Shown here: piece by piece, positions 2,420-21,626 of the stretch
Position numbering within the stretch: position 1 is the stretch's first letter
Layout of the letters: every line of letters begins with the position of its first letter
Source of the DNA: an uncultured delta proteobacterium
Lineage (GTDB): Bacteria > Myxococcota_A > Polyangia > Polyangiales > Polyangiaceae
Reading direction: 5' to 3'
Length of the DNA: 64,000 nt
NCBI GenBank assembly: GCA_963782055.1
Contig: CAWAIF010000003.1
Span: 3,616,001 to 3,680,000, forward strand
Notes under the pieces: model-generated
Database searches by the model: none
What the model was told of the DNA's origin: nothing
Seen by the model: the letters and a program-made list of their open reading frames with translations, nothing else
Translations under genes and position numbers: made by a program

Positions 2420-3124
2420 TTACTTCGTCGCCAGGCTGTCCAGCAGGGTGTCGAGCTCCGCGCGGGCGGCGGTGACGCTCTTCTGCGGGCCGGTCATCTT
2501 GAAGAAGTGCGGCATGCCGGGCGTCTCGACGATGGCGCCGAGGAGCTGCCAGTTTTGCTCGGCGCCGCCGCTCATGCCACCGCCGAAGGTGCCCTCGACG
2601 CTGACCACGGTGACGTTCAGTCCCTTGACGGTGCGCTTGGTGACCATCGACTTCTTCTCGCCCTGGAACTGGTCGATCCAGCGCTGCACGTTGGCGTCCA
2701 CGCCGCCGCCGGCCTGGGTGACCGACAGCTCGGGGTCCGAGGTGTCGCCGGGGGCGTGCGGGATGCGGTAGGTCGCCAGGCGCATCGGGCTGGGGTTGGG
2801 TACCTTCTGCCAGCGCGCGGGCGCCGTCCACGTCAGGTTGCTCTCCGCCGCGGGCGGAGCCGTCATGCCGGCGGCGCCCATGCCCGCCGCGCCGCCCATG
2901 TCCCCGATCGGCGGGTGTCCAGGGGGTAGGTCGCCGGTCATCCCGCCGCCCATGTCCTCGTTGGGCTGGGGGTCCGCCGCCTGGTTGGCCACCGGCTCCG
3001 CTGCCCGGGCGACGGCCTCGGGCGTGGAGCGGTAAGCCTGACCGGCGGCGAAGGCCCCCGCGCCCACGATCGCCGCGACGATGACGACCGTGGGCAGACC
3101 GACCTTGACGTCTGCAAAGCTCAA
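2420..3124 (-). CDS. Membrane-anchored periplasmic protein with LPPGHPPI motif, co-transcribed with the cytochrome gene
   Basis: N-terminal TM; Met/Gly-rich linker with GDLPPGHPPIG; globular domain (MRLATY, ANVQRWIDQF, FFKMTGP); starts 10 nt after the stop of 3135..4436. Confidence 0.7.
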   Translation of the reverse strand: MSFADVKVGLPTVVIVAAIVGAGAFAAGQAYRSTPEAVARAAEPVANQAADPQPNEDMGGGMTGDLPPGHPPIGDMGGAAGMGAAGMTAPPAAESNLTWTAPARWQKVPNPSPMRLATYRIPHAPGDTSDPELSVTQAGGGVDANVQRWIDQFQGEKKSMVTKRTVKGLNVTVVSVEGTFGGGMSGGAEQNWQLLGAIVETPGMPHFFKMTGPQKSVTAARAELDTLLDSLATK

Positions 3125-3134
3125 GCTGTTCTTC

Positions 3135-4436
3135 TCACTGGGGTCGGCTGGGGAGGCTGCTGGGATCGGAGCCCTTGAGGGTCACGATGGAGTCCCAGAG
3201 CAGCTGCTTGGTGTAGGTGGGGTTGTGCACCCCGAAGTCGCCGCCGTGGGCGACCAGGAGGAAGTTGTATAGCGCGCCGGCGTGGGGTCCGTCGATGCTC
3301 AGGTTGCTCCCGTTGGTGCCGCTGCCCGCGCGCACCTTGTCCAGGGCGAACTGCCCGTCGGCCAGCTCATCCGGCTGCAAGGGGAGGTTCGGCTTGGTGG
3401 TGGAACGGGTGAGGTAGCCGGCGTCGTTGAGCAGGCCCTGGAGCTCGAAGAGCCCGTCGCGCACCAGCGACTGGCCGCCCTGAACGTCGTAGTTGGTGCC
3501 CTGGTAGGTGGTGTGGCAGGTCTTGCAGAAGGAGACCTTGGGCACCAGCGAGTGATCCGGCACGTTGGCGTTGTCGGGGTTGGGGCCCATGTGACAGCTG
3601 ACGCACGCGTTGGCGATCGTCATGTGGGTGGAGGTGCCGTACTTCATGCCGGCGAACTCGTAGCCACCCTTGCCGCTGTAGATGTCGCTCTGCGGCCCCT
3701 CGTGCGGGCCCCAGTAGGGGCTGGAAAGGACGTTGCCCGTCGCGGTGACGTAGGCGGTCACGTCCTTGCGCGACTTGTGGCAGAAGACGCAGACGTTGGC
3801 GGCCTTGAGGCTGATCGTCTGCCCTACGCCCGCCCCGCCGTCGGGGCTCTTCTCCAGGTAGACGACGTCGTTGGGACCGCCGGGGACGCGGATGGGCGCC
3901 GAGCCGGCGACGTACTTGCCGGTGACGTGCGGGTCGTTGGTGGAGTTGAAGTCGTGGCAGGTGGTGCAGTGGATCAGGCCGATGGTGCTCGAGCCGCCGT
4001 AGCCGATCTCGGTGACCTTGCCGTTGTTGGCGAGGAAGTTGGTGTGCCCCTTCGGCACGTCCACCGGCGTGCCGGCGTCGTCCGCGATGGAGTACATGTT
4101 GGCGACACGTTGCTGGATGCCATCCACCGCGTGGCAGTTGCCGCACGCCTCGCCGGGGGTGACCTCGCTCTCCTGCGGGTGCGAGTGCGCGCTCAGCTTC
4201 CACTCGTCGACGACGCCGCCGAAGGTGTGGCAGGGCGCAGTGCACGCGCCGCCGCCCGCGTCGGGGATCGTCGTCGGGCCGGCCGGACCCTCGGGGCCCG
4301 CCGGGCCTGTCGGGCCTGCGGCGCCGATCATGCCGGCCGCTCCCGGATCTCCCTTGTCGCCCGTGCAAGCGACCACAAGACCGACAGACATGATGGTGGC
4401 AAAGAAAGCGGTGAAGAGGGAGCGAGGGCGGGTCAT
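3135..4436 (-). CDS. Hexaheme c-type cytochrome lipoprotein with collagen-like stalk, resembling the C-terminal part of Geobacter OmcB/OmcC
   Basis: Lipobox GLVVAC; about ten Gly-X-Y triplets; CTAPCH plus CGNCH, CTTCH, CVFCH, CVSCH, CKTCH; GPHEGPQ and GVHNPTYTKQLLWDSI; AGGA RBS before ATG 4436. Confidence 0.85.
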   Translation of the reverse strand: MTRPRSLFTAFFATIMSVGLVVACTGDKGDPGAAGMIGAAGPTGPAGPEGPAGPTTIPDAGGGACTAPCHTFGGVVDEWKLSAHSHPQESEVTPGEACGNCHAVDGIQQRVANMYSIADDAGTPVDVPKGHTNFLANNGKVTEIGYGGSSTIGLIHCTTCHDFNSTNDPHVTGKYVAGSAPIRVPGGPNDVVYLEKSPDGGAGVGQTISLKAANVCVFCHKSRKDVTAYVTATGNVLSSPYWGPHEGPQSDIYSGKGGYEFAGMKYGTSTHMTIANACVSCHMGPNPDNANVPDHSLVPKVSFCKTCHTTYQGTNYDVQGGQSLVRDGLFELQGLLNDAGYLTRSTTKPNLPLQPDELADGQFALDKVRAGSGTNGSNLSIDGPHAGALYNFLLVAHGGDFGVHNPTYTKQLLWDSIVTLKGSDPSSLPSRPQ

Positions 4437-4586
4437 GGGAGTCCTTCCTACTGGCGAGTTCGGTGGTGGATGCGAGGCCACGCCCCTGACGTCGCATGGG
4501 AACTGGTCGTCGACGCCCCCGAAGACTGGGCGGGCGGGCCTGCAGACGGTTGCCAGACCGGCTGCCTCGCCCCCGAAGACCACCTA

Positions 4587-4602
4587 AGCAGAGGTCATGC
4601 CG
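4587..4602 (-). promoter_or_regulatory. Putative sigma54 (-24/-12) promoter for the leftward cytochrome unit
   Basis: Minus strand CGGCAT-GACCT-CTGCT; exact GG-N10-GC spacing. Confidence 0.45.
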
Positions 4603-4662
4603 ACGTGATAGAAGCGCAAAGGTGAGTATGGCAAGGCGAAACGCACTGCAGACCGCGCGCCA

Positions 4663-4678
4663 CGGCGAATACTTTGCA
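4663..4678 (+). promoter_or_regulatory. Putative sigma54 (-24/-12) promoter for the rightward cytochrome gene
   Basis: CGGCGA-ATACT-TTGCA; GG-N10-GC with a perfect TTGCA -12 box, ~65 nt before ATG 4744. Confidence 0.45.
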
Positions 4679-4743
4679 GGCGTCCCCTGCCGACTCGTGG
4701 TGACAACGGTGCGTCGGCCGGCGGGATGCATGTCGGGACGGCC

Positions 4744-6282
4744 ATGAGGGTGCTGGAACGGTGGAACGTGCGAGCGCTGGTGGCCCTCACGGCGGCCCTG
4801 TCCTGCTGCAGCGAGGCGCGGGACGACACCGGTCTGCCGCCCACCTACCACGGCAGCGTGGCGACGATCCTGGACGCCAGGTGCGCGAGCTGCCACTCCG
4901 GCGCTGCTCCCGCGGGCGGGTGGCGCGCGGACACCTACCTGGGGGCGATCGGGTGCACGGCGGACGGGACGCCGGCGATTGGACCCGGGCCAGTACCCAT
5001 CCTGACCGCGCTGGACCGGCCCGACCACGCCGGCTTCGCGACTGCGGACGAGCGCGACGAGCTCGCCCGATGGATCGCCGCCGGTGCGCCCAGCATCCGG
5101 AGCGGGACGCACGACGCCTCCTTCGCCGACCCTCGCTCGCCCGACAGCCACGGCCGCTTCCTGCGCGCGATGCGCTGGCGGCCGATGCTCGACCCGAAGG
5201 ACCCCGACGCGTGTGGCAAGTGCCACGACGGCGCGCCCACGCGACCGGCGGGCGCGCAGGGCTTCGCCCCCGGCGCCACGCCCTGCACCACCTGCCACAC
5301 TGACCCCGGCGGCGCGCTCGCGTGCAGCACGTGCCACGGCTCCCCCGGCAAGGCCTCCCCCCCGCGCGACAAGTGCTTCTTCCCCGATGACCCTCCGGAC
5401 GTCATCCACCCCGCGCACACAGGGCCGAGCCCGTCGAACGCGGGCGGCCTCCCCTGCTCCACCTGCCACCCGCAGCCGGCGCAGGGCCAGTTCGACGGCA
5501 CGCACGGCGATGGCCACGTGGAGGTCTGGTTCGACTACGCGGTAGCCGGCAACCAGGCGCACTTCGACGAGACCACCAAGCAGTGCACCGGCACCTGCCA
5601 CGACAAGGGCGGCGCGCGTCCCGGCCCCTCCTGGACCGAGACGACACCGATGACCTGCAACGACTGCCACACGTCGCCGCCGGCCAACCACTACGCGGGC
5701 GCGTGCACCTCCTGCCACAAGGAGGCGAACGCCACGGGCACGGCGCTCGTGGACCCGCACCTGCACGTCAACGGCAAGGTGGATCTGGGCGACGGCAGCG
5801 GCAAGTGCGGGGCGTGCCATGGCGCCGGTGACCGCCCCTGGCCGTCGACAGGCGCGCACCTGGCGCACCTGCTGCCCAAGTTCGCGGCGCCAGTGTCGTG
5901 CGACACCTGCCACCCGGTGCCGGGCGCGGGGGACAAGCACCCACTCGGACTCGGCGCCCCCATCGTGCGGCTGGTGGGCCTGGCGACGGCCGGCGCCCGC
6001 CACCCGACCTACGATCCGCAGACCAAGACTTGTGCGGACACCTACTGCCACGCGGGCCCCGGCGCGAGCGTGCCCGCGCCCAAGTGGACCGACGGGCCGA
6101 AGGCGATCACCTGCGGCGGGTGCCACGCCATCCCGCCGAGCGCCCCGCACTCGACGGGCACCAACTGCAGCACCACCACGTGCCACCAGGGATCGACGAC
6201 GCTGATCGCCAGCGGACCCGTGCTCACGCCTGCGGGCGCGAAGGTCCACGTGAACGGGGTGATCGACCGGCAGGTGCCCTAG
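4744..6282 (+). CDS. ~13-heme c-type cytochrome lipoprotein: planctomycete-type monoheme domain plus CxxxxCH/CxxCH repeats
   Basis: Lipobox-like AALSCC; 10 CxxCH plus CTGTCH, CADTYCH, CSTTTCH; repeated HVNG and W-x(6-8)-CxxCH elements; start could also be GTG 4768. Confidence 0.88.
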   Translation: MRVLERWNVRALVALTAALSCCSEARDDTGLPPTYHGSVATILDARCASCHSGAAPAGGWRADTYLGAIGCTADGTPAIGPGPVPILTALDRPDHAGFATADERDELARWIAAGAPSIRSGTHDASFADPRSPDSHGRFLRAMRWRPMLDPKDPDACGKCHDGAPTRPAGAQGFAPGATPCTTCHTDPGGALACSTCHGSPGKASPPRDKCFFPDDPPDVIHPAHTGPSPSNAGGLPCSTCHPQPAQGQFDGTHGDGHVEVWFDYAVAGNQAHFDETTKQCTGTCHDKGGARPGPSWTETTPMTCNDCHTSPPANHYAGACTSCHKEANATGTALVDPHLHVNGKVDLGDGSGKCGACHGAGDRPWPSTGAHLAHLLPKFAAPVSCDTCHPVPGAGDKHPLGLGAPIVRLVGLATAGARHPTYDPQTKTCADTYCHAGPGASVPAPKWTDGPKAITCGGCHAIPPSAPHSTGTNCSTTTCHQGSTTLIASGPVLTPAGAKVHVNGVIDRQVP

Positions 6283-6295
6283 GGGCGTTCCGCGG

Positions 6296-8296
6296 CTAGC
6301 GCCGGAAGACGTGGCAGCCGTTGCATGCGGCGGCGGCGGGCTGGTGACCGCGCCTGTCGGTGTGGCACTTGCCGGTGCACGTGACGCGGTCGGCGTGCGG
6401 CGGACCGTGGGGGACGTGGCAGGTCAGGCAGGCGATGGCGTGACCCCGCACCGTGTGAAGACCGGGGAGCCGCGCGCGCTGGTGACAGGTGGTGCAGGCG
6501 GGCGGTGAGGCCGGCCCCATGGGGCCGTGGGGCCGGTGGCATGTCCGACAGCCCGCCGCGGCGAGCACGCCCACCGGGCGGCCGTGGATGGCCTTCGCCT
6601 TGTCGGCGTGGCAGCTCGTGCAGGCCGCGTGGACGCCGAGCGAGCCGGAGTGCGGGTCGTGGCAGCCGGTGCACTTCGCGTGGCCCGGCGGCGCGGTGTG
6701 CACCTCGGTCGCGTGACAGGACACGCACGTCGGCTTCGCCACCGGGGTGTGGGGCGCGCCGTGGCAGCCCTGGCAGTTGCGGTGGCCGGGGCGCTCCAGG
6801 ACGGCGGTCGCCATCGGCACGTGGCAGCGACCGCAGAGCTGTGGGCCGAGGCTGGCCAGGTTGAACTGGTGCGGGCGGTGACAGCCCTCGCACCGCACCT
6901 TGCCGGGGGCGTGGAAGGACCGGTCGTCGTGCGCCTGCGAGTGGCAGGTGGAGCACGCCGACGCCACCGTGGACGGCGATGTCGGGTGCGGGCTGTGACA
7001 GCCGACGCACGCACCAGGCTGCGGCGGACCGGCGGGGCTGGTCCCGCTCTTGACGGAGGCGAACTGCGCGGCCGCCGCCGGGTGGCTCGGGTGCACGCCC
7101 TGGTGACAGCCGGCGCACGCGAGCGCCGGCGACGCGCCTGGACGATGAGGATCGTGGCAGCTGGTGCAGACCGCGTGTGCCGGCACGCGGTCCGACGCAA
7201 GCGCGTGCACGCCGGCGTGACACCCGCCGCACGAGGAGGCGGCCTGGCTGAAGGCGTGCGGCTTGTGGCACCCGGTGCAGGAGTGCCCGGCAGTCGCCAG
7301 CGCGCCGGAGTGGTCCTGGTGACAGCCCAGGCACGGCTTGACCGTGGCGCGGGTGGCGTCGTGAGGGATATGGCAGGTGTCGCACGCCTCGTGGCCAGCC
7401 ACGTGCGGGCCGAAGGGCCGCACCTTCGGCGCGGAGACCGAGAGGGCGGCGAGCATCGGGCCGGGGCGATCGGAGGGCGGGCCGGTGCGCGCGGTGGTGG
7501 CGGCGAAGCCCGCGCCGACGTGGCACTTCATGCACACGGTCCGCGCCTGCGCCAGGGTGGCGTGGGGCGCGTGGCAGGTGGTGCAGACCTGCCCGGGCGC
7601 CGCGTGCTCCGGCGCGAGGGGCGCGGCCACCGAGGCCAGCTCCCCTTCGCGCGGGGCCACGAAGGGAGGCGACGGGGCGCCAGCCTCTCGGGCCGCCGTG
7701 ACGGCCGCGGCCACGGGGTGGACCTCCGCGTCGATGGGGACGCCCGCGTCCCGTACCGCCACGGCGAAGCCGTCGTGCTTCGCCCCGACGCCGGCGTGAC
7801 ACGTCGTGCAGTCGGCCAGCACCACCGCGCCCGCCCGCGTGGCGGGGTGCATGACGTGGCACGCGTCGCACGCGACATCGGCCGTCGCGTGACCCGCAAT
7901 GGCGGCCACGGCGCCTTGCGGCTTGGTGTGGCACGTCACGCACGGAGTGGCGGCCCCCGGCCGGAATGCATGACACGTCAAGCACGTGGTGGGCGACCGC
8001 GCGTCGCCGACGTGGGCGTGCGCGACCTCGGCGGCGTGGCACCCCTTGCAGACGCTCACCTGGGGGTGTGGGTCGAAGGTGTTGCCCTCACCGTGGCACT
8101 TGCCACAGGGGATGTGCTTCTGGTCGACGTGGACCTTGTGCATCGGCGCGGTGCGCGCCTGCTGCCAGGTGAGCGGCACCGCCTCCTTCGGCGAGGGCAG
8201 CGGCGTACGCTGCCGCGCCAGGAAGAAGACCAGCACCCCGAGCGCCGCGGTGAGCGCGAGGGCGGCGAGCCAGACTCGAGCGCGGGGCAGCTTCAT
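6296..8296 (-). CDS. ~27-heme c-type cytochrome with N-terminal membrane anchor
   Basis: 666 aa from ATG 8296 (ATGA overlap with upstream stop); 26 CxxCH plus CTGKCH, many as paired CxxCHxPH...CxxCH units. Confidence 0.92.
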   Translation of the reverse strand: MKLPRARVWLAALALTAALGVLVFFLARQRTPLPSPKEAVPLTWQQARTAPMHKVHVDQKHIPCGKCHGEGNTFDPHPQVSVCKGCHAAEVAHAHVGDARSPTTCLTCHAFRPGAATPCVTCHTKPQGAVAAIAGHATADVACDACHVMHPATRAGAVVLADCTTCHAGVGAKHDGFAVAVRDAGVPIDAEVHPVAAAVTAAREAGAPSPPFVAPREGELASVAAPLAPEHAAPGQVCTTCHAPHATLAQARTVCMKCHVGAGFAATTARTGPPSDRPGPMLAALSVSAPKVRPFGPHVAGHEACDTCHIPHDATRATVKPCLGCHQDHSGALATAGHSCTGCHKPHAFSQAASSCGGCHAGVHALASDRVPAHAVCTSCHDPHRPGASPALACAGCHQGVHPSHPAAAAQFASVKSGTSPAGPPQPGACVGCHSPHPTSPSTVASACSTCHSQAHDDRSFHAPGKVRCEGCHRPHQFNLASLGPQLCGRCHVPMATAVLERPGHRNCQGCHGAPHTPVAKPTCVSCHATEVHTAPPGHAKCTGCHDPHSGSLGVHAACTSCHADKAKAIHGRPVGVLAAAGCRTCHRPHGPMGPASPPACTTCHQRARLPGLHTVRGHAIACLTCHVPHGPPHADRVTCTGKCHTDRRGHQPAAAACNGCHVFRR

Positions 8297-9354
8297 GGGG
8301 CGTGGCAGAGGACGCAGGGCGTGTCGTGGGTCTTGTCGAGCGTGCTGTTGAAGCCGGGTCCGTGCGGGTTGCCGCCCGCGCCGCCCACCTTGTGACAGCC
8401 GACGCAGAGCATCTCGCCGGCGCCGCCGTGGCAGGCCGCGCACGAGGCGGGGTCCATGCGCGCGGCGGGCCCGTGCGCGCCGCCGCTCGCCAGCACCCAG
8501 CCGGGCGGGTGAGGGCTCTTGCCGCCCTGCGGGGTGGTGGCGCCCACCTGGTCGCGCTCGTGGCAGTCGGCGCAGAAGCGCTCGCTGCGGTGGCAGGTGC
8601 TGCACAGGCCGGGCGACGCGCGCGCCTCGTCGGCGTGCCGTGAGACGAAGCCGGCCGGGTGCAGCCCCTCCACGCGCGGCCGGTCGAAGCGGAGCTTCCA
8701 CGGCAGGGCGGGCGTGGTCACGCCGTGGCAGCTCGCGCAGAAGTGCTCCTCGTGACAGGTGGCGCACAGGTCGCGAGAGGCGGCCGCCTGCACGCCGTGC
8801 TCGCGGAGGAAGTCGCCGTCGTGCACCAGGTGGCTGGTCGGGGTGACGTGCTCGGCGGGGAGGTCCACGTGGCACGCGTTGCAGTCGCGGACGCGCCACT
8901 GATCCTTGTGCACGTGGCAGGTGAAGCACTGCGCCATCGGCGGGCGAAGCGTCGCCTGCTCGGTGCTGCCAGCGCCCACGTGGCACACGACGCACTGCCC
9001 GCGCACCTGCGCGACGTGCTTGGCGTGCGCGAAGCGCAGGTGCTGGCGGGCGAGCTCGTCCTCCTGCTCGGTGTGGCGCATGCCGTGGCAGGTCAGGCAA
9101 TCACGGGTGTCGTGGGGCTTGCGGTGGCACGAAGCGCACTTCTTCGCGGAGGGGAGGTGGAGCGGGCCGGTGTCGCCGGCGCGCTGCACGCCCTCGTGGC
9201 AGACCAGGCAGTTGATGCCCTTGAGGGAGTGCGCGCGGTGCTCGAAGGGGTGCTGCTGATCGCGCGGGTGAATCCCGAGCACGCCGGCGCACGCCGCGAC
9301 GGAGAGCGCGAGCAGCAACGGCAGCAGGGAGCGAAGCGAGGGGCGGCGCGTCAC
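8293..9354 (-). CDS. 13-heme c-type cytochrome lipoprotein (cytochrome c3/c7-like repeats)
   Basis: GTG 9354 in GTGA overlap with porin stop; lipobox LSVAAC; 13 CxxCH; FEHRAH and FAHAKH c3-like motifs. Confidence 0.9.
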   Translation of the reverse strand: MTRRPSLRSLLPLLLALSVAACAGVLGIHPRDQQHPFEHRAHSLKGINCLVCHEGVQRAGDTGPLHLPSAKKCASCHRKPHDTRDCLTCHGMRHTEQEDELARQHLRFAHAKHVAQVRGQCVVCHVGAGSTEQATLRPPMAQCFTCHVHKDQWRVRDCNACHVDLPAEHVTPTSHLVHDGDFLREHGVQAAASRDLCATCHEEHFCASCHGVTTPALPWKLRFDRPRVEGLHPAGFVSRHADEARASPGLCSTCHRSERFCADCHERDQVGATTPQGGKSPHPPGWVLASGGAHGPAARMDPASCAACHGGAGEMLCVGCHKVGGAGGNPHGPGFNSTLDKTHDTPCVLCHAP

Positions 9355-10563
9355 CGCGCCCTCTCGAAGGTGTAGGAGAGCCGGGCCAGGGCGTCGATCT
9401 CGTGCTTGTACTGCGGGCCGGCAGAGGCCTCCAGCGCGGCGGCGACCTCCCAGCCCGGCGCCGGGCGGTAGCCGACGGAGGCGAGGGCCCACGGCCAGAG
9501 GTCCCCCTGCCCGTTCGGGTCATCCGGGCGCACCAGCTCCAGCTCCGCGCCGGCGTGGAAGTGCCACGGGAGCGGCAGGCTCGCGGTGGCGCGGATGCCG
9601 ACCCACCGCGAGGTGTCGAAGTAGACGCGTCGCAGCTCGGCGCCGAGGGTGCCGTTCCACTTGTCGTCCAGGGCGAGGCGCCCGCGGAGCGCGACCTGCC
9701 CGCCCACGATGTCGTCCTGCACCTGCGCCGACGCCGTCCCCACCAGCTTCAGCCGGGGCGCGGCCTTCCAGTAGACGCTGCCGCCCGTGGTGGTCGCCGC
9801 GATGTCCCCCAGCACCGAGAAGAGCGACGTCTTGGGGAGAAGCCGGCCGGGCGATCGACTGGTGAGGAACGCCTCGAAGCGGAGCGGGCCGGTCTGCACC
9901 GAGGCGGAGACGAGCGCCTCGGCGAGGCCGGGGTCGATGAGAATCGAACGCGGCGCGGCCTGTCGCGGAGAAGACCTTGCCCGGCGTGAGCGTCAGGTCG
10001 GCGCCCGCTTCCTGGTACTCGGGGTGCTCCTCGTTACGCTGCTGCATGTACGATCCGCCGACGGCCAGCCAGTCCCCTGCGGTCTGCGCGACGCGTCCGC
10101 CGACGGCCCACTCGACGCCGTGGTAGTCGAAGCGGGGCGCCACAGGGAAGCCCCCGAATGCCTCCACGCTCGTCCCCCACGGCAGGCGCAACAGCCCCCG
10201 CACTCCGTCCAGGTGGAGCGGCCGGATCGCGCCGGTGGCGATCACCATGCGCCCCGCGCGCACCTCGCCGAGGCCGTGCGGATCGCGGACGCGAACCGAG
10301 AGCGTCAGCACGTCGCCGGTGGCCTCCGGATCGTTGGTGACGCCCACCCACATCACCGACTCGGCGTCCACCCACGGTCGCAGCCGGTCCTGGCCGGTGA
10401 GCACGAGCAGCCCCGCGGGGGTGCCCGACTGCGGCGACGTCTGGACGAGAGCGTCGCCCCGCAGGCGCAGCGGATCCGCCGCGGCGATCGCGGGGACCAG
10501 CGCAAAGGCTGCGGCCAGAAGGGTCACGAGAGACTTGCCTCCGTGACGACGAGACGCTTTCAT
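9351..10563 (-). pseudogene. Predicted outer-membrane beta-barrel (porin of a porin-cytochrome complex) interrupted by a 1-nt insertion: real pseudogene or sequencing error
   Basis: Signal peptide ...PAIAAA|DP; amphipathic beta-strands; C-terminal LARLSYTF. Removing one A at 9942/9943 joins ORF 9520..10602 to ORF 9351..9899 (GRAAFD-LIDPGLAEALVSASVQTG), ~403 aa. Alternative start GTG 10527. Confidence 0.75.
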
Positions 10564-10596
10564 CGCGGTTCCATTGAGTGGTACGAGCAAATCGGC

Positions 10597-11250
10597 ATGC
10601 ACGAGTGGCTAGGATGGACAGCGTTGGGGTGTGCGGGGATCGCGGCGGCGCTGCTGATCCAGCACCTGTGGCGCAGGCCCGCCCTCACTCCGGACACCCG
10701 CCTGCGCCTCCTCTTCGGGCTGGGCGTGTTTCCCATCCTTAGCGCCGGCGCGGCCAACATCAAAGGTTTCCAGTCGATGGAGTCTCGCAAGTTCTGCGGC
10801 TCCTGCCACGTGATGATCCCCCAGGCGACGGATTCGCGAAACCACCAGAGCCACTCGCTCTCCTCCATTCACGCGCGCAACAAGTTCTTCGGGGAAGACA
10901 ACTGCTACTCGTGCCACGCGGACTACGGCATGTACGGCTTCGTCGTCACCAAGATGGGTGGCATGCGGCACGTCTACTACTACCTCACCAAGTTCCGGTC
11001 TGTCCCGGTCGACGAGGCGAAGCGAGAGATCCGCATCAACAAGCCGCTGCCTAACGGCAACTGCATGGAGTGTCACACGACCACGGCGCCCGACTGGCTG
11101 GAGATCGGCGACCATGCCTCCGCGGTGGAGGGCGTACGCAACGGCAGCATCTCGTGTGCGAGCCCCGGCTGCCACGGCTACGCCCACCCCAACACCAAGA
11201 CCGCCGCCGAGCTCGAGCTGGCGCGGCCGGTGGGGGACGCCGGGCTGTGA
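10597..11250 (+). CDS. NapC/NirT/NrfH/CymA-family tetraheme membrane cytochrome c (quinol dehydrogenase)
   Basis: Two N-terminal hydrophobic segments; FCGSCHVM (CxxCHxM), CYSCH, CMECH and fourth site CASPGCH; KMGGMRHVY helix. Confidence 0.88.
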   Translation: MHEWLGWTALGCAGIAAALLIQHLWRRPALTPDTRLRLLFGLGVFPILSAGAANIKGFQSMESRKFCGSCHVMIPQATDSRNHQSHSLSSIHARNKFFGEDNCYSCHADYGMYGFVVTKMGGMRHVYYYLTKFRSVPVDEAKREIRINKPLPNGNCMECHTTTAPDWLEIGDHASAVEGVRNGSISCASPGCHGYAHPNTKTAAELELARPVGDAGL

Positions 11251-11531
11251 AGCTGCGCATCCCCTCCAACGACGCCACGCTCCGCATCGCGTGCGTGATG
11301 GCGCTCCTGGCGCTCCCGCTGATGGTGTGGTCCGTCTTCGACCCCACCGTGTGGCCGATCATGGTCGCCCTCTCCGTCGGCCAGGCGCTCGGGACGCTCT
11401 CCTTCTTCGCCTTCCTGGTGGTCGTCGCGCGCGACCTGCGCATCCGCCGGAAGCTGCGCATCCAGGCCGCCACCGACGCGGCGAGCCTCCCGCCGCCCAG
11501 CGTGAGCGAGCCCCCCGAGTCGAAGGGATGA
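11247..11531 (+). CDS. Small two-TM membrane protein coupled to the NapC-like gene
   Basis: GTGA overlap; 94 aa with two hydrophobic helices then a basic tail. Confidence 0.7.
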   Translation: MKLRIPSNDATLRIACVMALLALPLMVWSVFDPTVWPIMVALSVGQALGTLSFFAFLVVVARDLRIRRKLRIQAATDAASLPPPSVSEPPESKG

Positions 11532-11580: not shown

Positions 11581-11616
11581 CGACGAGTGAGAGCGCCGTC
11601 CTGGACGGCTCTGGAG

Positions 11617-11698
11617 TGCGAAGGAGGGGACTTGAACCCCTACGGTGTTACCCGCTAGCACCTCAAGCTAGTGCGTCTGCCAATTCCGCCACCTTCGC
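11617..11698 (-). tRNA. tRNA-Leu (GAG)
   Basis: GCGAAGG/CCTTCGC acceptor stem; anticodon arm CTAGC-TTGAGGT-GCTAG; long variable arm; GTTCAAG T-loop; CCA not encoded. Confidence 0.96.
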
Positions 11699-11734: not shown

Positions 11735-12811
11735 TCAAGCGCGTCGTTTCGCTTCCAGCAGGGCCGAGACGATCTCGCCCACCTCGAAGGGCTTGCGGAC
11801 CCAGAGGGCGCCGGTGGAGCCCTCGGGCAAGGCGTCGGCGCTGCCGGTGATGAAGACGATGGCCGCGCGCTCCGCCTGACGGCGGACCAGGTCCAGGGCG
11901 CCCTGGACGTCGGCGGCGATGGGAGAGAGGTCCACCAGCACCGCGTCGTGGTCGGCCCGCAGGTGGCTGGCGAGCTCCCCGGCGGTGCGCGCGACGGTGA
12001 CGTGGGCGCCGCGGGCGGAGAGGGCAGCCTCGAGCAGGTCGGTCACGTCGGCGTCGTCCTCCAGGATGAGGACGCGCGAGCCGGCCAGCACGGCCGCCTT
12101 CAGGGTGGAGCGCGAGGGCGAGCCGGCGCGAGGCTCCTCGGCGCGCGGCCAGGTCAGCCGGAAGCGGGCGCCGCCGTCGGGGTCGGAGGCGAGGGCGAGG
12201 TCCCCTCCCGCCGCGCGGGCCATGGCCCGCGCGTGACGGAGGCCCACGCCGGCGCCCCCGGTGCGGGTGGTGTCGCCCTCGAAGACCGTGCTGGAGCGCT
12301 CGTCGGGGATGCCCGGGCCGTCGTCCTCCACCTCCACCGTCACCTGAGCACCGGAGACGATGCTGACGATGCGCACCTCGCTGCCGCGCGGGGCGTGGGC
12401 CAGGGCGTTGAGCACCAGGTTGGTGACGATCTGCGACACGTCCTCCCCGAGGGGCACGCGTGTGCGGTCGTCCCCGCGGCGCACCAGGCGAATCCCCGCC
12501 CGCTCCGCCTCCACCCGGAGGGCCTCCTCCGCGCCGCGCAGCACCTCCCCCAGCTCGGCCTCGCGGCTCGCGGGGACCTCGGCGCCGATGGCGCGGCGGG
12601 CGAGGTCGCGCGCGGCGCGCGCACGCTGCTCGACGATGCGCAGCGCGTGCTCCACCTCCTCGGCGGTGGCGCCGGGGGCGCGAGCCTCGGCCACCCACCC
12701 CAGCAGCACGGTGAGGGCATTCGACACCTCGTGCAACGCCCCCTCGAAATCGTGGCCGGGGGTGTCGGGGACAGAGCCCCTGACCGTGCTGGGATGTTTG
12801 GCGTCCGGCAA
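11735..12811 (-). CDS. Hybrid histidine kinase/receiver protein with no input domain
   Basis: H-box LHEVSNAL near N-terminus; NLVLNA, DDGPGI, GAGVGL boxes; receiver LILEDD...VLVD...KPF. Confidence 0.88.
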   Translation of the reverse strand: MPDAKHPSTVRGSVPDTPGHDFEGALHEVSNALTVLLGWVAEARAPGATAEEVEHALRIVEQRARAARDLARRAIGAEVPASREAELGEVLRGAEEALRVEAERAGIRLVRRGDDRTRVPLGEDVSQIVTNLVLNALAHAPRGSEVRIVSIVSGAQVTVEVEDDGPGIPDERSSTVFEGDTTRTGGAGVGLRHARAMARAAGGDLALASDPDGGARFRLTWPRAEEPRAGSPSRSTLKAAVLAGSRVLILEDDADVTDLLEAALSARGAHVTVARTAGELASHLRADHDAVLVDLSPIAADVQGALDLVRRQAERAAIVFITGSADALPEGSTGALWVRKPFEVGEIVSALLEAKRRA

Positions 12812-14089
12812 TCAGCCCTCCGTGGGCGGTATCTTGGGGGTGTTGCCGCTCGTCAGGCGCCGGGCGGCGGCGGCGAGGTCGATGCCGGTGGCGGCGCGCA
12901 CCTGCTCGGCCGTGAAGATGGCCTTGCGGGCGAGATCGCCGTCCTGGACGGTGGGAAGGACGGTGAGCTTGCGGACCCCGACCTTCTGCGTGGCCCCGGC
13001 GATGGCCTGGGCGAGGGGCATCATCTTCTGCACGACGAGCACCTCCCGCGCGGAGCTGCCGGCGCGCTTGTACTGCTCGACGAGGGCGTGCAGCGAGGCG
13101 GCCTGCGCCCTGCCCTGCTCCACGATGCGGGCGGCGGCGCCGCGCGCCCGCTCCTCCGAGGCCTTGCGCTGGGCCTCTGCCGGCTGGACCACCTCGGCGT
13201 CCAGCTTGCGCTGCACCTGCAGGACGCGGGCCTTCTGCCGCTCGATCTCCGCGCGGGTCTTGGCGACCTCGGCGGCGACCTGACCCTCCGATTCGGCGAT
13301 CATGGCTGTCCTCTTGGATCGCGCGTCGGCGATTCGCTTGGCGTACTGCTGCCGGGCGATCTCCAGGTCGGCGTCGATCTTGGCCAGCTCGGCGTTCATG
13401 ATGTTGGTCGCCTTCTGGACCGCCGCGTCGGCCTGGGCGGAGGCCTCGGCGATGGCGGCGTCCTGCCGGACCGTGGCGCCGCGGATGCGGCCGATGGAGT
13501 TGAAGTAGCCGACGTCGTCGGAGACGCTCTGGATCTTGAGCGTGTCCAGCGCGAGGCCCATGCGGTTCATGTCGTGCTCGGCCTCCTCGATGAGGCTCTG
13601 CGCGAAGCGGGTCTTGTCCTCGTTGACCTGCTGCGGGGTGAGCTGCGCGAGCACGCCGCGCAGGTTGCCCTCCAGCGTCTCCTTGGCGATACGCATGATC
13701 TCCGGCTGGGACTTGCCGAGGAAGCGCTCCACCGCGTTGGCGAGCAGGTTCTCCTCGCCGGCGACCTTGACGTTCGCCACGCCGACGACGTTGAGCGGGA
13801 CGCCGCCGCGCGCGTAGGCGTTCTGCACGACCACGTCGATCGTGAAGGTGGTGAGGTCGATGCGGTCCACCTGCTCCAGCAGGGGCACGCGCAGGCTGCG
13901 ACCGCCGCGGACGGCGCGGTAGCCGACCTCCTTGCCGCTGACCAGGCGGCGGCGGCCGCTGAAGATGAGCGCCTCGTTGGGGGTGCTCACGTAGAGCAGA
14001 CGACGGAGCATCATCGAGAGGAAGATGAGGACGACGAACGCCGCGAAGACCAGGACCGCGATGATCCCGAAGGGGTTGTTGCCATTCAT
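12812..14089 (-). CDS. Flotillin-like SPFH domain protein
   Basis: N-terminal TM, PNEALIFSG, ANVKV, TLEGNLRGVL, AEA coiled-coil repeats; ATG 14089 overlaps upstream stop. Confidence 0.92.
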   Translation of the reverse strand: MNGNNPFGIIAVLVFAAFVVLIFLSMMLRRLLYVSTPNEALIFSGRRRLVSGKEVGYRAVRGGRSLRVPLLEQVDRIDLTTFTIDVVVQNAYARGGVPLNVVGVANVKVAGEENLLANAVERFLGKSQPEIMRIAKETLEGNLRGVLAQLTPQQVNEDKTRFAQSLIEEAEHDMNRMGLALDTLKIQSVSDDVGYFNSIGRIRGATVRQDAAIAEASAQADAAVQKATNIMNAELAKIDADLEIARQQYAKRIADARSKRTAMIAESEGQVAAEVAKTRAEIERQKARVLQVQRKLDAEVVQPAEAQRKASEERARGAAARIVEQGRAQAASLHALVEQYKRAGSSAREVLVVQKMMPLAQAIAGATQKVGVRKLTVLPTVQDGDLARKAIFTAEQVRAATGIDLAAAARRLTSGNTPKIPPTEG

Positions 14090-15435
14090 CGCGAGCCTCC
14101 CCTCAGGGTGGCGGGCGGCAGCTCGCCGGGTGGACTCGAGCCCACCGGGCCGATGAGGGCGCGGACGTCCACGCCCATCGCCCGGCCGGTCTCCTCGAGC
14201 ACGCGCGCCACGCTCATGGAGAAGGCGGAGGCCACCGCGCCGAGGCTCCGGCCGTCGCCGCCGTCGACGATCTCCAGCTCGGTCACCTCGAGCTGGGAGA
14301 CGCGGGCGACCGCCGCGGCGACGACCCCGTCGAGCTGCTGCAAGAGGTAGATGTCGCGGCCGCTCCCGCCGGCCGCGGCCCACTCCGCGACCACGAGGCT
14401 GAGGGCCTCGGCGGTGGCCTTGCCGTTCTCGGTGATGGGCGCCGCCTCGCCGCGCGCGCGCGACGCCTGCGCCTGGGCCTGGGCCTCGGCGGGGAGCACC
14501 GTCTCGACCTGCAGCGCGAGCTTGGCGAGCTCGGCGCGCAGCCCCTGGAGGTCCTGCTCGGCCTTGGCGCGCGCGGTCTCCGCCGCCACCTGCGCCTCGT
14601 TCTCGATGCCCTGCGCCTCCGCCTCCAGCTTGGCGATCTCCGCGCGGAAGCCGTTGCGCCTCTGGAGGATCTGCGCCTCCGCCTGCTGCTGCGCGCTCTC
14701 GGCGCGCTGCCGGTTCTTCGCCTGCTCCTCCTTCACGCGCTGGTCGGCCTGGCTCTCGGCGTTCTGTCCGTCGCGCACCATGGCGGCGATCTGCGCGCGG
14801 CCGAGGTTCTGCAGGTACTTCTGGTCGTCGGCGACGTGCTGGACCTTGAGCACGTCCAGCTCCAGGCCCAGCTTGTCGAAGTCGTCCTTGGCGTTGTGGA
14901 CCAGCGAGCCGGCGAACTTCAGGCGGTCCTGGTTGACCTCCTCCGGGGTGAGCTGGCTCAGCACCTCGCGCAGGACGCCTTCGAGCGTCTGCTTGGCGAC
15001 CATCAGGATCTGGTTGGTGGGCACGCCCAGGAAGCGCTCCACGGCCTGCCGCACCAGCTTCTCGTCGGTGGAGATCTTGACGTTGGCGATGGCGTGGACG
15101 TTCAGGGGGATGCCGCCCTTGGAGAAGGCGTTCTGCACCGCCACCTCCACGCCGTACAGCCGTACGTCCATGCGCGAGACCTGCTCGAGCAGCGGCCAGC
15201 GGAGGGCGCGGCCCCCGTGGATCACCTTGAAGCCCACCTGCGAGCCGTCCGGCAGCTTGTGCTTGCGGCCGGAGAAGACCAGGATCTGGTTGGGAGCGCA
15301 GATGTAGAGGAAGCGCGTCACGAAGAAGACGACGATGAACAGCGCCAGGAGCGCGCCCACGCCCACCCCCAGGCTCTGCGCGAGGTCGGCGGGATCGAGG
15401 ATCGTGTCGCCGCCCGGTGTCGGTAGAGGAGCCAT
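14086..15435 (-). CDS. Flotillin-like SPFH domain protein (paralog)
   Basis: PNQILVFSG, IANVKI, TLEGVLREVL, EA/AQ coiled-coil. Confidence 0.92.
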   Translation of the reverse strand: MAPLPTPGGDTILDPADLAQSLGVGVGALLALFIVVFFVTRFLYICAPNQILVFSGRKHKLPDGSQVGFKVIHGGRALRWPLLEQVSRMDVRLYGVEVAVQNAFSKGGIPLNVHAIANVKISTDEKLVRQAVERFLGVPTNQILMVAKQTLEGVLREVLSQLTPEEVNQDRLKFAGSLVHNAKDDFDKLGLELDVLKVQHVADDQKYLQNLGRAQIAAMVRDGQNAESQADQRVKEEQAKNRQRAESAQQQAEAQILQRRNGFRAEIAKLEAEAQGIENEAQVAAETARAKAEQDLQGLRAELAKLALQVETVLPAEAQAQAQASRARGEAAPITENGKATAEALSLVVAEWAAAGGSGRDIYLLQQLDGVVAAAVARVSQLEVTELEIVDGGDGRSLGAVASAFSMSVARVLEETGRAMGVDVRALIGPVGSSPPGELPPATLRGGSR

Positions 15436-15515
15436 GCGGCCGAGACTACGCCCCTCGGGTTGGGGTAGGAAGCCAATGTGACGAGCTGCCCCAGCCGCAC
15501 GCGCGTGACGTCACC

Positions 15516-16064
15516 TCAACTCAGCTCCTTCGGCGCGCGGCTGACGGTGAGGCGGTCTTCTTCCAGCTCCTCCACGACGACCGAGTCGCCCTCCGCCAGT
15601 GGCTCGTCGGAGTGGGCGACGTAGTCGACGACGCTCCCCTTGACGCTGACGCGCACCTTGGCGTGTCCCTCGTCCGACGGCGGAACGATCACCCGGCCGA
15701 CCAGGCCGACGACGTCGCGCGCGCCCACCACGCTGGAGGTGTCCTTGACCAGCAGCCGCCGGATCACCAGCGAGGCCGCCGCGCCTGCGGCGAGGCCCGC
15801 GCCCAGCGCGACGACCAGGGCGACGATCTTGCCGGCGAGGCCGAGGAGGCTGAGCGCGCCGCCCACCAGCCCGAAGGTCATCAGGGCGAAGGCCCAGAAG
15901 CGGACGCTGGCGAGGACCCACAGCGCGGAGTCCAGCCCGGCGTCGTGGTCGCCGTGGACCCCCACATCGTGGTCCATTCCACCCGGTGCGTCGTGACCAC
16001 CCACGAGCTGCAGCGCGAGCGCACCGAGCCCGACCACGAGGGCCGCGAGGTAGACCGCAAGCAT
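15516..16064 (-). CDS. NfeD-like membrane protein with C-terminal OB fold
   Basis: Hydrophobic helices followed by VVGLVGRV...VRVSVKG...GDSVVVEE; immediately upstream of flotillins. Confidence 0.82.
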   Translation of the reverse strand: MLAVYLAALVVGLGALALQLVGGHDAPGGMDHDVGVHGDHDAGLDSALWVLASVRFWAFALMTFGLVGGALSLLGLAGKIVALVVALGAGLAAGAAASLVIRRLLVKDTSSVVGARDVVGLVGRVIVPPSDEGHAKVRVSVKGSVVDYVAHSDEPLAEGDSVVVEELEEDRLTVSRAPKELS

Positions 16065-16098: not shown

Positions 16099-17493
16099 CT
16101 ACTCCTCCACCACCCGCGCGCCGTCGCCCTCGGCCGTGAGCAGGTCCAGGGCCTTGCGCGCGGCCTCGACCGTGATGTTGCGCGCCTCGACGATCATGGC
16201 GGCGACGCGCTCGACGAGGCCGCCCTCCGCGCCGGCGGCCATGGCCACCGCGCGGGCGTGCAGCGCCATGTGGCCGCGCTGGATGCCGTCGGTGGCGAGG
16301 GCGCGGACCGCCGCCAGGTTGGAGGCGAGGCCGACCGACGCCGCGATGGCGGCCAGGTCCTGCGCCCCGCGCGTGTCCAGGATGCGCAGCGACAGCCGCG
16401 CGGCGGGGTGCACGCGCAGGGTGCCGCCCACCGTGCCGAGCGCCATCGGCAGCTCCAGCCGACCGAGCAGCTCGTCCCCCTCTCGCCGCCAGGTGGCCAG
16501 GGGCGCGTAGCGTCCGCTCCGCGCCGCGAAGGCGTGGGCGCCTGCCTCCACCGCGCGCCAGTCGTTGCCGGTGGCGATGACGACGGCGTCGATGCCGTTC
16601 ATGATGCCCTTGTTGTGCGTGGCGGCGCGGTACGGGTCCGCCTCCGCGAAGCGCGAGGCGTTGACGATGCCGTCGATCACGGCCGAGCCGTCCATCCCCT
16701 CGGTGGCGAGGACGCGCGCCGGGATGCGGCAGCGGACGCGCACGCAGCGGCGGTCGCAGAGGTTGGACAGGATGCGCAGGCCCACGCGGCCGCCGGAGAG
16801 CTCGGCGAGGCGCGGGGCGACGGCCTCTGCCACGCCGTTGACGAGGTTGGCGCCCATGGCGTCGCGGCAGTCGACGAGCACGTGCACCGCCATCATGCCG
16901 TCCTCGGGCGTGGTGCCCTTCGGGCTGTCGGCCCGCGCTTCGCGCGGGACCTCGGGTGACGTGCCCTTCGGGCTGTCGGCCCGCGCTTCGCGCGGGACCT
17001 CAAGGAAGCGCACGTCCAGCTCGCGCGCGCCGCCGCCGCGCTCCACGAGGCCGGGGATGGCGCGGTCCGCCAGGGCGAGGACCTCCTCGGCGTGGGCGAG
17101 CACCTGCGCGCGTGCCCGCTCGCGATCGCGCACCTCGATGAGCTGCACCTGGGCGATCATCAGCGGGGGGTCGGTCTCGACGGCGAAGCCGCCGCCCGCG
17201 CGCACCATCTTGGCGGCGTTGGACGCCGCGGCCACCACGCTGGGCTCCTCCACCACCATCGGCACGACGTGGTCGTGGCCGTTGACCCGCACGTTGAGCG
17301 CCACGCCGTAGGGGAGCGCGTAGATGCCGATCACGTTCTCGACGAACTTGTCGGCGGTGTCCTCGTCCAGGCCGCCGCCGTCCAGCGAGCGCGCCATGTC
17401 CGCGACCTCGACGCCGGTGGCCTCGCTCACCAGCGCGCGCCGCTCCTCCACCGTCATCTTGTAAAAGCCCGGGAATCTGGACGTACGTGCCAT
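16099..17493 (-). CDS. mvaA: HMG-CoA reductase, class II
   Basis: ENVIG, PMVVEEPSVVAAAS, DAMGAN, RAATHNKGIMNG, GIQRGHMALH. Confidence 0.96.
   Translation of the reverse strand: MARTSRFPGFYKMTVEERRALVSEATGVEVADMARSLDGGGLDEDTADKFVENVIGIYALPYGVALNVRVNGHDHVVPMVVEEPSVVAAASNAAKMVRAGGGFAVETDPPLMIAQVQLIEVRDRERARAQVLAHAEEVLALADRAIPGLVERGGGARELDVRFLEVPREARADSPKGTSPEVPREARADSPKGTTPEDGMMAVHVLVDCRDAMGANLVNGVAEAVAPRLAELSGGRVGLRILSNLCDRRCVRVRCRIPARVLATEGMDGSAVIDGIVNASRFAEADPYRAATHNKGIMNGIDAVVIATGNDWRAVEAGAHAFAARSGRYAPLATWRREGDELLGRLELPMALGTVGGTLRVHPAARLSLRILDTRGAQDLAAIAASVGLASNLAAVRALATDGIQRGHMALHARAVAMAAGAEGGLVERVAAMIVEARNITVEAARKALDLLTAEGDGARVVEE
16913..17001. repeat. Two identical 41-bp palindromic units at 48-bp period, in frame within mvaA
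   Basis: GTGCCCTTCGGGCTGTCGGCCCGCGCTTCGCGCGGGACCTC at 16913 and 16961; encodes (EVPREARADSPKGT)x2. Confidence 0.9.
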
Positions 17494-17500
17494 GTGCTCC

Positions 17501-21406: not shown

Positions 21407-21626
21407 CGCCGCCTGCTCCCACGCGCGCGCCGGCGCGGGCAGCCCTGTAGCACGAGTCGAGGCGGCGGCGCAGGCGAGCGAATCGGTGCGTTTTAGCATC
21501 GAAGAAACAACGTGAAAGGGCCCCGGAAAATCCCGCCTGCGGGCGTCGTCGGGCCCGTGCCCCCCGAACCGTAGGGGGCCAGCCCGCGGAAGTCAACGCG
21601 CCGCGACGCCGTTTTCCATCGTGTTA

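Follow-up and report, generated by a model that had tools for sequence, protein, structure and literature searches.

The window analysed in this study is a 64,000-nucleotide stretch of the genome of an uncultured member of the Polyangiaceae (assembly GCA_963782055.1, contig CAWAIF010000003.1, positions 3,616,001 to 3,680,000), and its subject is a cassette of eight genes that occupies ~9 kb at positions 2420-11531. The cassette encodes five multiheme c-type cytochromes, a beta-barrel porin and two accessory proteins, and it is a predicted conduit of the porin-cytochrome kind that is neither MtrCAB nor PCC3. Its genes, and two features between or beside them, are the following, with protein lengths in amino acids (aa).

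2420..3124, minus strand: 234-aa accessory protein with an N-terminal hydrophobic helix, a Pro/His-rich linker and a soluble domain, without heme motif
3135..4436, minus strand: 6-heme lipoprotein with a Gly-X-Y stalk and an NrfA/OcwA/OmhA-type fold, candidate surface terminal reductase
4662..4678, plus strand: predicted sigma-54-like -24/-12 site 5' of the CxxxxCH cytochrome gene, a single consensus match from a pattern scan
4744..6282, plus strand: 13-heme lipoprotein cytochrome with CxxxxCH/CxxCH domains, candidate outer-face conduit partner
6296..8296, minus strand: 27-heme cytochrome with an N-terminal hydrophobic anchor, candidate periplasm-spanning wire
8293..9354, minus strand: 13-heme lipoprotein (353 aa), porin partner, with hemes 1-6 in a c7-like half and hemes 7-13 modelled in the barrel
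9351..10563, minus strand: outer-membrane beta-barrel of ~400 aa, 22 strands, plugless, its frame broken near 9945 in the assembly
10597..11250, plus strand: membrane tetraheme of the NapC/NirT/NrfH family with two N-terminal hydrophobic helices, candidate menaquinol dehydrogenase
11247..11531, plus strand: membrane protein of 94 aa with two helices, its gene coupled to the NapC-like one, probable partner subunit
11616..11698, minus strand: tRNA-Leu (GAG), found by ARAGORN, at the flank of the cassette and a possible integration site

Recounted on the translated genes, the heme motifs of the five cytochromes number 6, 13, 27, 13 and 4 along the map, 63 in total (57 CxxCH, 3 CX3CH and 3 CX4CH), the same as in an earlier account of this DNA made from its letters, hereafter the sequence-only reading. 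A six-frame scan of segments longer than 50 codons found elsewhere in the 64-kb window a single CX3CH, in a 63-codon frame, and zero CxxCH, so that the heme density of the cassette is far above chance. Four-base stop/start overlaps link the porin gene to the 13-heme gene (GTGA), the 13-heme gene to the 27-heme gene (ATGA) and the NapC-like gene to the 94-aa gene (GTGA); the translational coupling proposed earlier for the first three genes is thus visible, and the last two are joined likewise. The arrangement of the cassette in four units also stands as it was described. As to its two accessory membrane proteins, the 94-aa product is indeed a two-helix membrane protein, whereas the 234-aa product reads as a soluble domain anchored by one helix and is not polytopic. 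At the end opposite the tRNA gene, the cassette is bordered by hisB (an IGPD match).

The porin gene is not a single open frame. Both the G+C content at third codon positions (GC3) and a codon-model detector show the coding signal shifting frame at ~9945, and at the break the gene is one base longer than its homologues, in which three residues lie between a conserved D and PG (52 of the 53 with a match to the pattern). Homologous loci were taken from a scan of a genome collection in which 149 stretches were confirmed. The locus counts given here rest on the best 80 of these 149, 45 of which are at least 19 kb in length and are called the long loci, and the hidden Markov model (HMM) thresholds overlook some short CxxxxCH variants. 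The two porin halves lie back to back in homologous loci, and in none of the 80 is the porin split across two frames by such a break (one locus has an overlapping off-frame match). It is conceivable that the frameshift is real, i.e. that the cassette is decaying in this genome and the conduit fails to assemble here, a matter separate from the role of the family: the break is present in the assembly as given, and the patchy distribution of the cassette and its position beside a tRNA gene suggest that it is dispensable. We regard such decay as unlikely. The same detector finds 99 frame switches among the 7341 coding segments of the host genome (13.5 per 1000) against 1 among 813 segments (1.2 per 1000) in 66 comparison loci, and it counts 9 in 201 (44.8 per 1000) for 14 loci that, going by the type of their records, seem to come from long reads. 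Since frame switches are common in the host genome and in loci of the long-read type, the break probably comes from an assembly error and not from a true frameshift. In addition, the seven other genes of the cassette are intact, and coding-type GC3 is retained in both halves of the porin.

An intact homologue of the porin (P0005, 66% identical to the N-terminal half of the window porin) was modelled with AlphaFold2, which gave 22 strands after a signal helix at a predicted local distance difference test (pLDDT) score of 83. In fold comparison the model agrees best with 22-strand TonB receptors over their barrel ranges (Z 17-19) and with ushers; MtrB reaches Z 15.2. Identity as a TonB-dependent receptor was rejected, because the model aligns to the barrel ranges alone, without the plug; a barrel without a plug needs something else to fill its lumen. 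The sequence-only reading had made its case depend on the product of 9351-10563 being a barrel, and the homologue model, a 22-strand plugless barrel, agrees. Searches of Pfam and NCBIfam gave no relevant family for either porin half or for any of 119 intact homologues, none of which matched the MtrB models at E 0.1 either, and screens based on such families therefore miss the barrel. A profile of the distant homologues found 0 matches among PDB sequences, an Atlas search returned solely unnamed Myxococcota clusters and generic barrel leads, and no Geobacter porin-cytochrome structure was among the fold matches listed, with kinship to these still possible.

The 13-heme protein encoded next to the barrel carries a lipobox in 70 of 70 homologues, and the lipobox Cys is invariant in close and distant ones. 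Its profile matches the Geobacter dodecaheme 3OV0 in the PDB (E 1e-22), the N-terminal half resembles the c7-repeat wires, the conserved His residues outside the heme motifs suffice for bis-His ligation, and the MtrA/DmsE model TIGR03508 has no match to the window protein. A complex was modelled for the native porin and 13-heme pair of Labilithrix luteola (locus L095) together with three controls. The pair reached an interaction score (ipSAE) of 0.85 against 0.00 for the best control, contacts agreed between runs to at least 91%, and the pLDDT of the partner was at least 76; among 157 solved complexes 116 pass the mark applied to ipSAE, as do 2 among 215 mismatches, and for the alignments used here these counts are only approximate. 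The cytochrome is thus placed, by prediction only, inside the barrel lumen; the sequence-only reading had named it as the partner of the porin. The modelled contacts involve alternating residues on nearly all strands and residues 171-345 of the partner, which hold hemes 7-13; further partner contacts fall at residues 23-27 beside the lipid-bearing Cys. When these contacts were placed by hand on the barrel topology, with the termini assumed to be periplasmic and the long loops outside, hemes 1-6 would extend on the periplasmic side, while a conserved long loop of the outer face would cover the C-terminal hemes.

Two further cytochromes of the cassette appear to be lipoproteins as well, as had been proposed; the porin partner is, by its lipobox, a third one. 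The first, the CxxxxCH cytochrome, has a lipobox-like sequence in 51 of 55 homologues, scores 73.7 bits against TIGR01904 (cut-off 27) and lies above the cut-off of PF09698. Its gene accompanies the porin and 13-heme genes in 14 of 15 distant loci outside family f9 (the exception, L114, has none within the stretch examined), and its motifs, 13 in the window, number up to 36 in distant loci. The second, the 6-heme cytochrome, has a lipobox in 50 of 50 homologues and a Gly-X-Y stalk whose collagen-like match is weak and below cut-off. Its lipobox and stalk, and the GspD gene of the host, are only suggestive of a surface position. The structural model of this protein is moderate (pLDDT 67). Foldseek gave no match at E 0.001, the best row being OcwA at E 0.024, and VIA, with Z 10.1-11.4 throughout, did not rank NrfA, OcwA, OmhA and octaheme nitrite reductase apart (OcwA: Z 10.9, root-mean-square deviation (rmsd) 3.9, 226 residues aligned; OmhA: Z 10.8, rmsd 4.8, 241 aligned). 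A single-sequence search of the PDB returned 0 matches, and the profile found NrfA chains alone, weakly, at E ~1e-4.

Some relatives have another protein in place of the 6-heme one. A decaheme cytochrome is encoded in 8 of the 80 loci and a 6-heme cytochrome in 49, and no locus has both; all four decahemes tested pass the OmcA/MtrC cut-off of TIGR03507 (311-427 bits against 209), for which the window 6-heme protein itself scores 21 bits. The swap ties the 6-heme slot to a known family of surface reductases. This bears on the possibility that the cassette is an NrfHA-like enzyme, in which the tetraheme would feed the NrfA-fold 6-heme protein, for reduction or detoxification of nitrite, hydroxylamine or sulfur compounds, with the other cytochromes as relays. 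Among the 50 homologues of the 6-heme protein CxxCK occurs in 1, and KxQH/KxRH, which we take to be the catalytic motif of NrfA, in 0; the window protein scores 39.5 against TIGR03153, for which the cut-off is 134. These figures, the replacement by MtrC/OmcA and the presence of a cytochrome-filled barrel, for which a periplasmic reductase has no need, make such an enzyme very improbable, even though NrfH is the sole PDB sequence match of the tetraheme, the 6-heme profile weakly matches NrfA chains alone and shares their fold, NnrS and hemerythrin genes lie beside some copies, and OcwA, a surface terminal reductase, slowly reduces nitrite (PMC6703420). The 234-aa protein encoded next to the 6-heme gene, present in 24 of the 45 long loci, has no Pfam or NCBIfam match; its nearest Atlas clusters are unnamed Myxococcota proteins, with PsbP-like as a mere lead at 0.86, and a role in maturation or docking would be a guess.

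On the inner side, the tetraheme scores 36.3 bits against PF03264 (cut-off 24.1), and NrfH (2J7A) is matched at E 1e-5. Its homologues have CxxCHxM in 63 of 63 cases and K..G..H in 59 of 63, the latter aligned to the K..G.RD stretch of NrfH, which presumably serves the quinol site. The NapC/CymA-like quinol oxidase of the sequence-only reading is thereby placed as a membrane tetraheme of the NrfH/NapC type. The 94-aa protein encoded after it has no Pfam or NCBIfam match and lacks His, so it is not a carrier of heme b; each of the two genes is found in 42 of the 45 long loci. The gene of the 27-heme cytochrome is found in 43. This protein, with 24.7 aa per heme, has a hydrophobic helix and no lipobox in the window copy, and a helix-only N-terminus is seen in 47 of 60 homologues; the membrane-anchored 27-heme wire proposed earlier thus holds, relatives having 25-27 hemes. 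MtrA measures 104 Å for its 10 hemes (PMC4245776) and the periplasm is 170 Å wide (PMC11492766). By simple arithmetic, 27 hemes could, if extended, reach up to ~28 nm, i.e. more than that width.

The sequence-only reading knew of no such system in Polyangiales, but the cassette is neither singular nor unrecorded. Of 301 genomes in the order, 84 have a 13-heme orthologue (E <=1e-90); its own family accounts for 41 of these (among 153 genomes) and family f9 for 32 (among 65), the listed f9 matches all being from one genus. The nearest named homologues are from Labilithrix and Polyangiaceae, which makes Polyangiales the probable order of the host, and the full set of eight genes is present in the cultured L. 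luteola DSM 27648. Among the long loci, 40 of 45 contain the six core genes, 39 of 45 the core with a terminal cytochrome (6-heme or decaheme) and 20 of 45 all eight. Over the phylum, the porin profile matches 58 of 401 genomes, and in 20 loci drawn from these matches (15 weak ones and 5 from f9) a 12-14-heme partner lies by the barrel in 20 of 20 and a CxxxxCH gene in 19 of 20; a three-gene core is therefore widespread in the phylum, to which the NapC-like, long-wire and terminal genes are additions in this clade. As the neighbourhoods of the cassette vary between relatives, it moves or disappears as one block. The tree of the 13-heme protein is a quick one in which long branches meet among the distant rows, and it carries no claim on origin or direction of transfer.

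Several variant loci were seen along the way. The host genome has a second pair (L133:7747-10664, contig C3 ~1411750-1414660, minus strand) made up of a 515-aa barrel-like gene and then a 13-heme cytochrome gene with no other cytochromes nearby. This 13-heme protein is distantly related to that of the cassette (E 1e-27), and the barrel-like gene shows no detectable homology to the window porin (hhalign probability 2%); the barrel-like gene matches 43 of 201 genomes of the phylum and 10 of 14 of its own family, and a 12-13-heme partner accompanies it in 3 of 4 loci of relatives inspected. A third, divergent type of porin with 12-heme and CxxxxCH cytochromes occurs in L121, L122 and L123 of the same family, L122 additionally having a decaheme and L123 NapC-like, two-helix and 27-heme genes. 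In the small genomes of genus g27 of family f9, 17 of 19 of which have a porin match, the cassette is expanded by extra 8-, 9- and 10-heme cytochromes (L124-L128). One genome holds three porin-13-heme copies of differing layouts (L018, L019, L020), another two (L022, L023). At L069:6354-15186, the porin and 13-heme genes adjoin genes for NrfD, 4Fe-4S, Rieske and cytochrome b proteins and for 9- and 11-heme cytochromes, a different inner-membrane set that replaces the NapC-like gene.

The layout of a porin-cytochrome conduit (Pcc) is defined as a barrel of 18-22 predicted strands beside a cytochrome of 5-14 hemes, as in OmbB-OmaB-OmcB and groups I-V (PMC4245776), and the 22-strand barrel and adjacent 13-heme protein of 353 aa fit this definition; in both a multiheme partner stands beside a small barrel, usually with an outer-membrane cytochrome too. 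The partner is, however, a lipoprotein here and not a periplasmic non-lipoprotein cytochrome. In Anaeromyxobacter the Pcc consists of two genes with a periplasmic partner (12-14 hemes, 338-344 aa) and no outer cytochrome (PMC4245776), whereas the cassette has in addition the NapC-type tetraheme, the anchored 25-27-heme wire, the CxxxxCH lipoprotein and, as terminal cytochrome, either MtrC or a protein of OcwA fold. No named Geobacter or Anaeromyxobacter protein was among the matches listed, most of which are unnamed, and the rows for A. dehalogenans 2CP-1 in the supplement of PMC11475568, a table that covers some neighbourhoods, contain no 13-heme protein of ~350 aa by a barrel of ~400 aa. With MtrCAB and CymA the cassette shares a NapC-family quinol dehydrogenase (CymA is likewise a NapC/NirT-type tetraheme), a cytochrome in a plugless barrel and a surface-lipoprotein design, and true OmcA/MtrC proteins occur in eight related loci. 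The MtrB barrel has 26 strands (PMC12133095), against 22 here without any MtrB family match; MtrA is a soluble decaheme, against a 13-heme partner with a lipid anchor; the window lacks MtrC, and instead of soluble periplasmic shuttles there appears to be the anchored long wire. The cassette falls outside MtrCAB by its barrel and its partner, and it fits the layout definition of the Pcc apart from the lipoprotein partner.

PCC3, reported from Alpha-, Beta- and Gammaproteobacteria (PMC5566968), resembles the cassette in pairing a porin with very heme-rich periplasmic and extracellular cytochromes as a proposed envelope-spanning wire (here the 27-heme and CxxxxCH proteins). Its inner-membrane protein is a five-helix heme-b protein of ~300 aa with two WX3HX13H motifs, whereas the inner tier here is a NapC-type c-cytochrome with a His-free 94-aa protein, and no conserved five-helix gene of that type was seen in the 80 loci. 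The 6-heme protein shares with OcwA of Thermincola potens and OmhA of Carboxydothermus ferrireducens an NrfA-type fold, C-terminal helices and the lack of CxxCK; it differs in having 6 hemes against 9 and 11, in aligning to their C-terminal part alone, in its collagen-like stalk and in belonging to a Gram-negative host with a porin. As in NrfHA, a tetraheme of the NrfH type, which has CxxCHxM, is combined with a partner of NrfA fold in one cassette; CxxCK and KxQH/KxRH are absent, scores stay below the family cut-offs, and a barrel and three more wires are present.

In the literature, supplementary file 1 (MHCscan) of a 2024 study (PMC11475568) contains machine-generated rows for four L. luteola cytochromes of 349, 584, 514 and 438 aa, without the porin and NapC-like genes of that strain, and for a Minicystis rosea cluster of MtrC, a heme-free protein of 396 aa, a 13-heme protein of 349 aa and a 26-heme protein of 599 aa. 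From the protein sizes, the M. rosea cluster would be of the same family. A term search of the main text of that paper gave 0 mentions of Labilithrix, Myxococc- or Polyang-. Myxococcota were the richest in novel putative cytochromes of extracellular electron transfer in a lake study (10.1101/2022.03.26.485925), and the main text of a 2026 Myxococcota survey has no mention of porin, electron transfer or iron. A description of the cassette was not found in full-text literature, a scope that leaves out closed preprint supplements and subscription papers.

The host genome (7.58 Mb in 3 contigs, 72% G+C, 97% complete) encodes aa3, cbb3 and bd oxidases, an alternative-complex-III-like cluster (an NrfD-type subunit and a pentaheme, as read from the sequence), menaquinone synthesis by the futalosine route (MqnC above cut-off), CcmF/CcmH for cytochrome maturation, type II secretion (GspD), an assimilatory-type nitrate reductase and a NosZ-like gene that is full-length but falls short of the clade-I cut-off; NarG and NrfA were searched for in it and not found. 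This gene set fits a menaquinone-bearing aerobe equipped for low oxygen. Such a host could also run the same conduit inward or in both directions, in the manner of MtoAB/CymA, with Fe(II), reduced humics or else a cathode as donor and the quinone pool, then the cbb3/bd oxidases or NosZ, as recipients, since its high-affinity oxidases and NosZ-like gene would serve as sinks and direction is not fixed by sequence. Menaquinone, which the host uses, has a low potential that favours outward flow. Porin-cytochrome pairs are known from Fe(II) oxidisers, yet inward systems often have no outer cytochrome (PMC4245776, PMC5566968), whereas the cassette keeps an OcwA-fold or MtrC/OmcA lipoprotein; inward or two-way use accordingly seems improbable to us.

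The regulatory signals hint at sigma-54. Of 63 loci, 38 have a site of this type 5' of the NapC-like gene, whereas one is found in 2.5% of shuffles and in 3.9% of random windows. None is conserved 5' of the porin gene (2/59), and the signals are weak for the CxxxxCH gene (7/54) and the 6-heme gene (7/50). No FNR-type box was seen by eye in the gap between the napC and porin genes, where the sigma-54-type site stands instead. The gap also has a CTTGCA...TGCAAG inverted pair, conserved in L049-L083 and L100, one arm of which is the -12 element of the NapC-like gene's sigma-54-type site, while the other faces the porin and has a non-canonical -24. Genes for universal stress proteins (Usp), CBS, hemerythrin, protoglobin, NnrS or AAA_33 proteins flank 24 of the 80 loci (22 of the 52 that are at least 15 kb long). 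Compared with the window's own genome, the flanks are denser in protoglobin (6.9 against 0.3 per Mb) and Usp genes (17.6 against 1.2), and only mildly so in sigma-54 activators (10.7 against 6.2). These low-oxygen stress genes, together with the very low ratios of 25-39 aa per heme and the origin of the hosts, per their sequence records, in soils, sludge and sediments with fluctuating oxygen, would also suit a heme capacitor, an idea put forward for sludge cytochromes (PMC11495043): the 63 hemes would store electrons during short anoxic spells and discharge them later to oxygen or shuttles, so sustaining motility and survival and not growth on minerals. Storage needs neither a barrel nor a stalked terminal cytochrome, both of which are retained, and we think it improbable too, slightly more so than inward flow.

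Taken together, the evidence makes it reasonably probable that the cassette is an outward electron conduit from menaquinol to the cell surface, used when oxygen is short. The NapC/NrfH-type tetraheme and its two-helix partner would oxidise menaquinol, and the membrane-anchored 27-heme wire would take the electrons across the periplasm to hemes 1-6 of the 13-heme lipoprotein. Hemes 7-13 would then carry them through the 22-strand barrel to two terminal lipoproteins, the CxxxxCH cytochrome and the stalked 6-heme cytochrome of OcwA fold, for which some relatives have MtrC/OmcA. The acceptors that these reduce would be oxides of Fe(III) or Mn(IV), humic quinones or the like. The order of carriers, the sidedness of the lipoproteins, the direction, the acceptor and the induction at low oxygen are what we infer from these data, and none of the findings that the sequence-only reading had named as telling against a conduit was encountered.

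A number of points weigh against this outward conduit. The score of the modelled complex may owe something to likeness to, or memory of, the solved MtrAB. The fold search fails to separate OcwA and OmhA from NrfA, which are tied in Z, on a 6-heme model that is itself moderate, and a lipobox says nothing on which face of the membrane a protein reaches. As the eight decaheme loci are confined to few clades of the quick 13-heme tree, the mutual exclusion of decaheme and 6-heme genes reflects few independent events, and lipoprotein-like long wires (~7 of 60) blur the tier to which the 27-heme protein is assigned. In the window copy, the porin is frameshifted as assembled, the NapC-like gene is without a canonical sigma-54 site (the site is instead 5' of the CxxxxCH gene), and none of the low-oxygen gene types just mentioned flanks the cassette; the enrichment in flanks is suggestive only, because related genomes do not count as independent and the background was taken from a different one. 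Furthermore, NapC-family proteins and porin-cytochrome wires are reversible, and L. luteola has been described as aerobic. Cultured Myxococcota have been described, more generally, as predominantly aerobic (10.1101/2021.07.06.451402).

Mineral respiration is, moreover, not the only use to which an outward path could be put. Myxobacteria live in dense contact, and electrons might be exchanged from cell to cell in swarms, in biofilms or with prey or partners; a barrel-like and 13-heme pair without terminal cytochromes in the host, and in 10 of 14 genomes of the same family, would agree with this. The 80 flanks, however, contain no link to social or predation genes, and the terminal modules resemble reductases of minerals and shuttles, so that we hold this exchange to be the least probable of the alternatives. 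Myxobacteria outside Anaeromyxobacter are mostly viewed as aerobic predators and decomposers. A wider proposal, which we put forward tentatively and a little short of an even chance, is that about a quarter of the genomes of the order, cultured presumed aerobes included, can respire or balance redox on extracellular acceptors by means of a conduit peculiar to them. In it, a 22-strand barrel that belongs to no named family would hold a lipid-anchored 13-heme wire, an anchored 25-27-heme protein would link this firmly to the inner membrane in place of soluble shuttles, the terminal cytochrome (an OcwA-fold hexaheme or MtrC/OmcA) would be swappable, and control would lie with sigma-54 and oxygen sensors. 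If this is true, a widespread guild of soil, sludge and sediment joins the redox cycling of iron and humics, and if the cassette works as modelled, a common lineage would reduce Fe(III), Mn(IV) or humics at oxic-anoxic interfaces. It would also offer structural work and bioelectrochemistry a compact third conduit architecture beside MtrCAB and the Geobacter Pcc, and as the path from quinol to surface is complete in the cultured type strain L. luteola DSM 27648, the proposal is directly testable.

Other genes of the host and the window deserve a brief mention. Contig C3 carries at 6721575-6745900 (L152) a nitrogen-oxide cluster of NosZ-like and Nos accessory-like genes with a Crp-family regulator, hemerythrin/ScdA proteins and an assimilatory-type nitrate reductase. 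Two 8-heme cytochromes that have no relation to the cassette are encoded on the same contig at 3975517-3977337 and 4278521-4281697, and one of them matches PF02335 marginally. In the window, the cassette is flanked by a Crp/Fnr-family regulator (1042-1743) and a histidine kinase with a receiver-like tail (11735-12811), neither conserved beside it in relatives. Next to the kinase, at 12812-16064, are two tandem SPFH/flotillin genes (one with a Band_7 match) and an upstream small membrane protein, which we take to resemble NfeD. They are followed at 16099-22843 by a mevalonate-pathway cluster encoding 3-hydroxy-3-methylglutaryl-CoA (HMG-CoA) reductase, a phosphomevalonate kinase-like protein, diphosphomevalonate decarboxylase, mevalonate kinase, a polyprenyl synthase and a type 2 isopentenyl diphosphate (IPP) isomerase.

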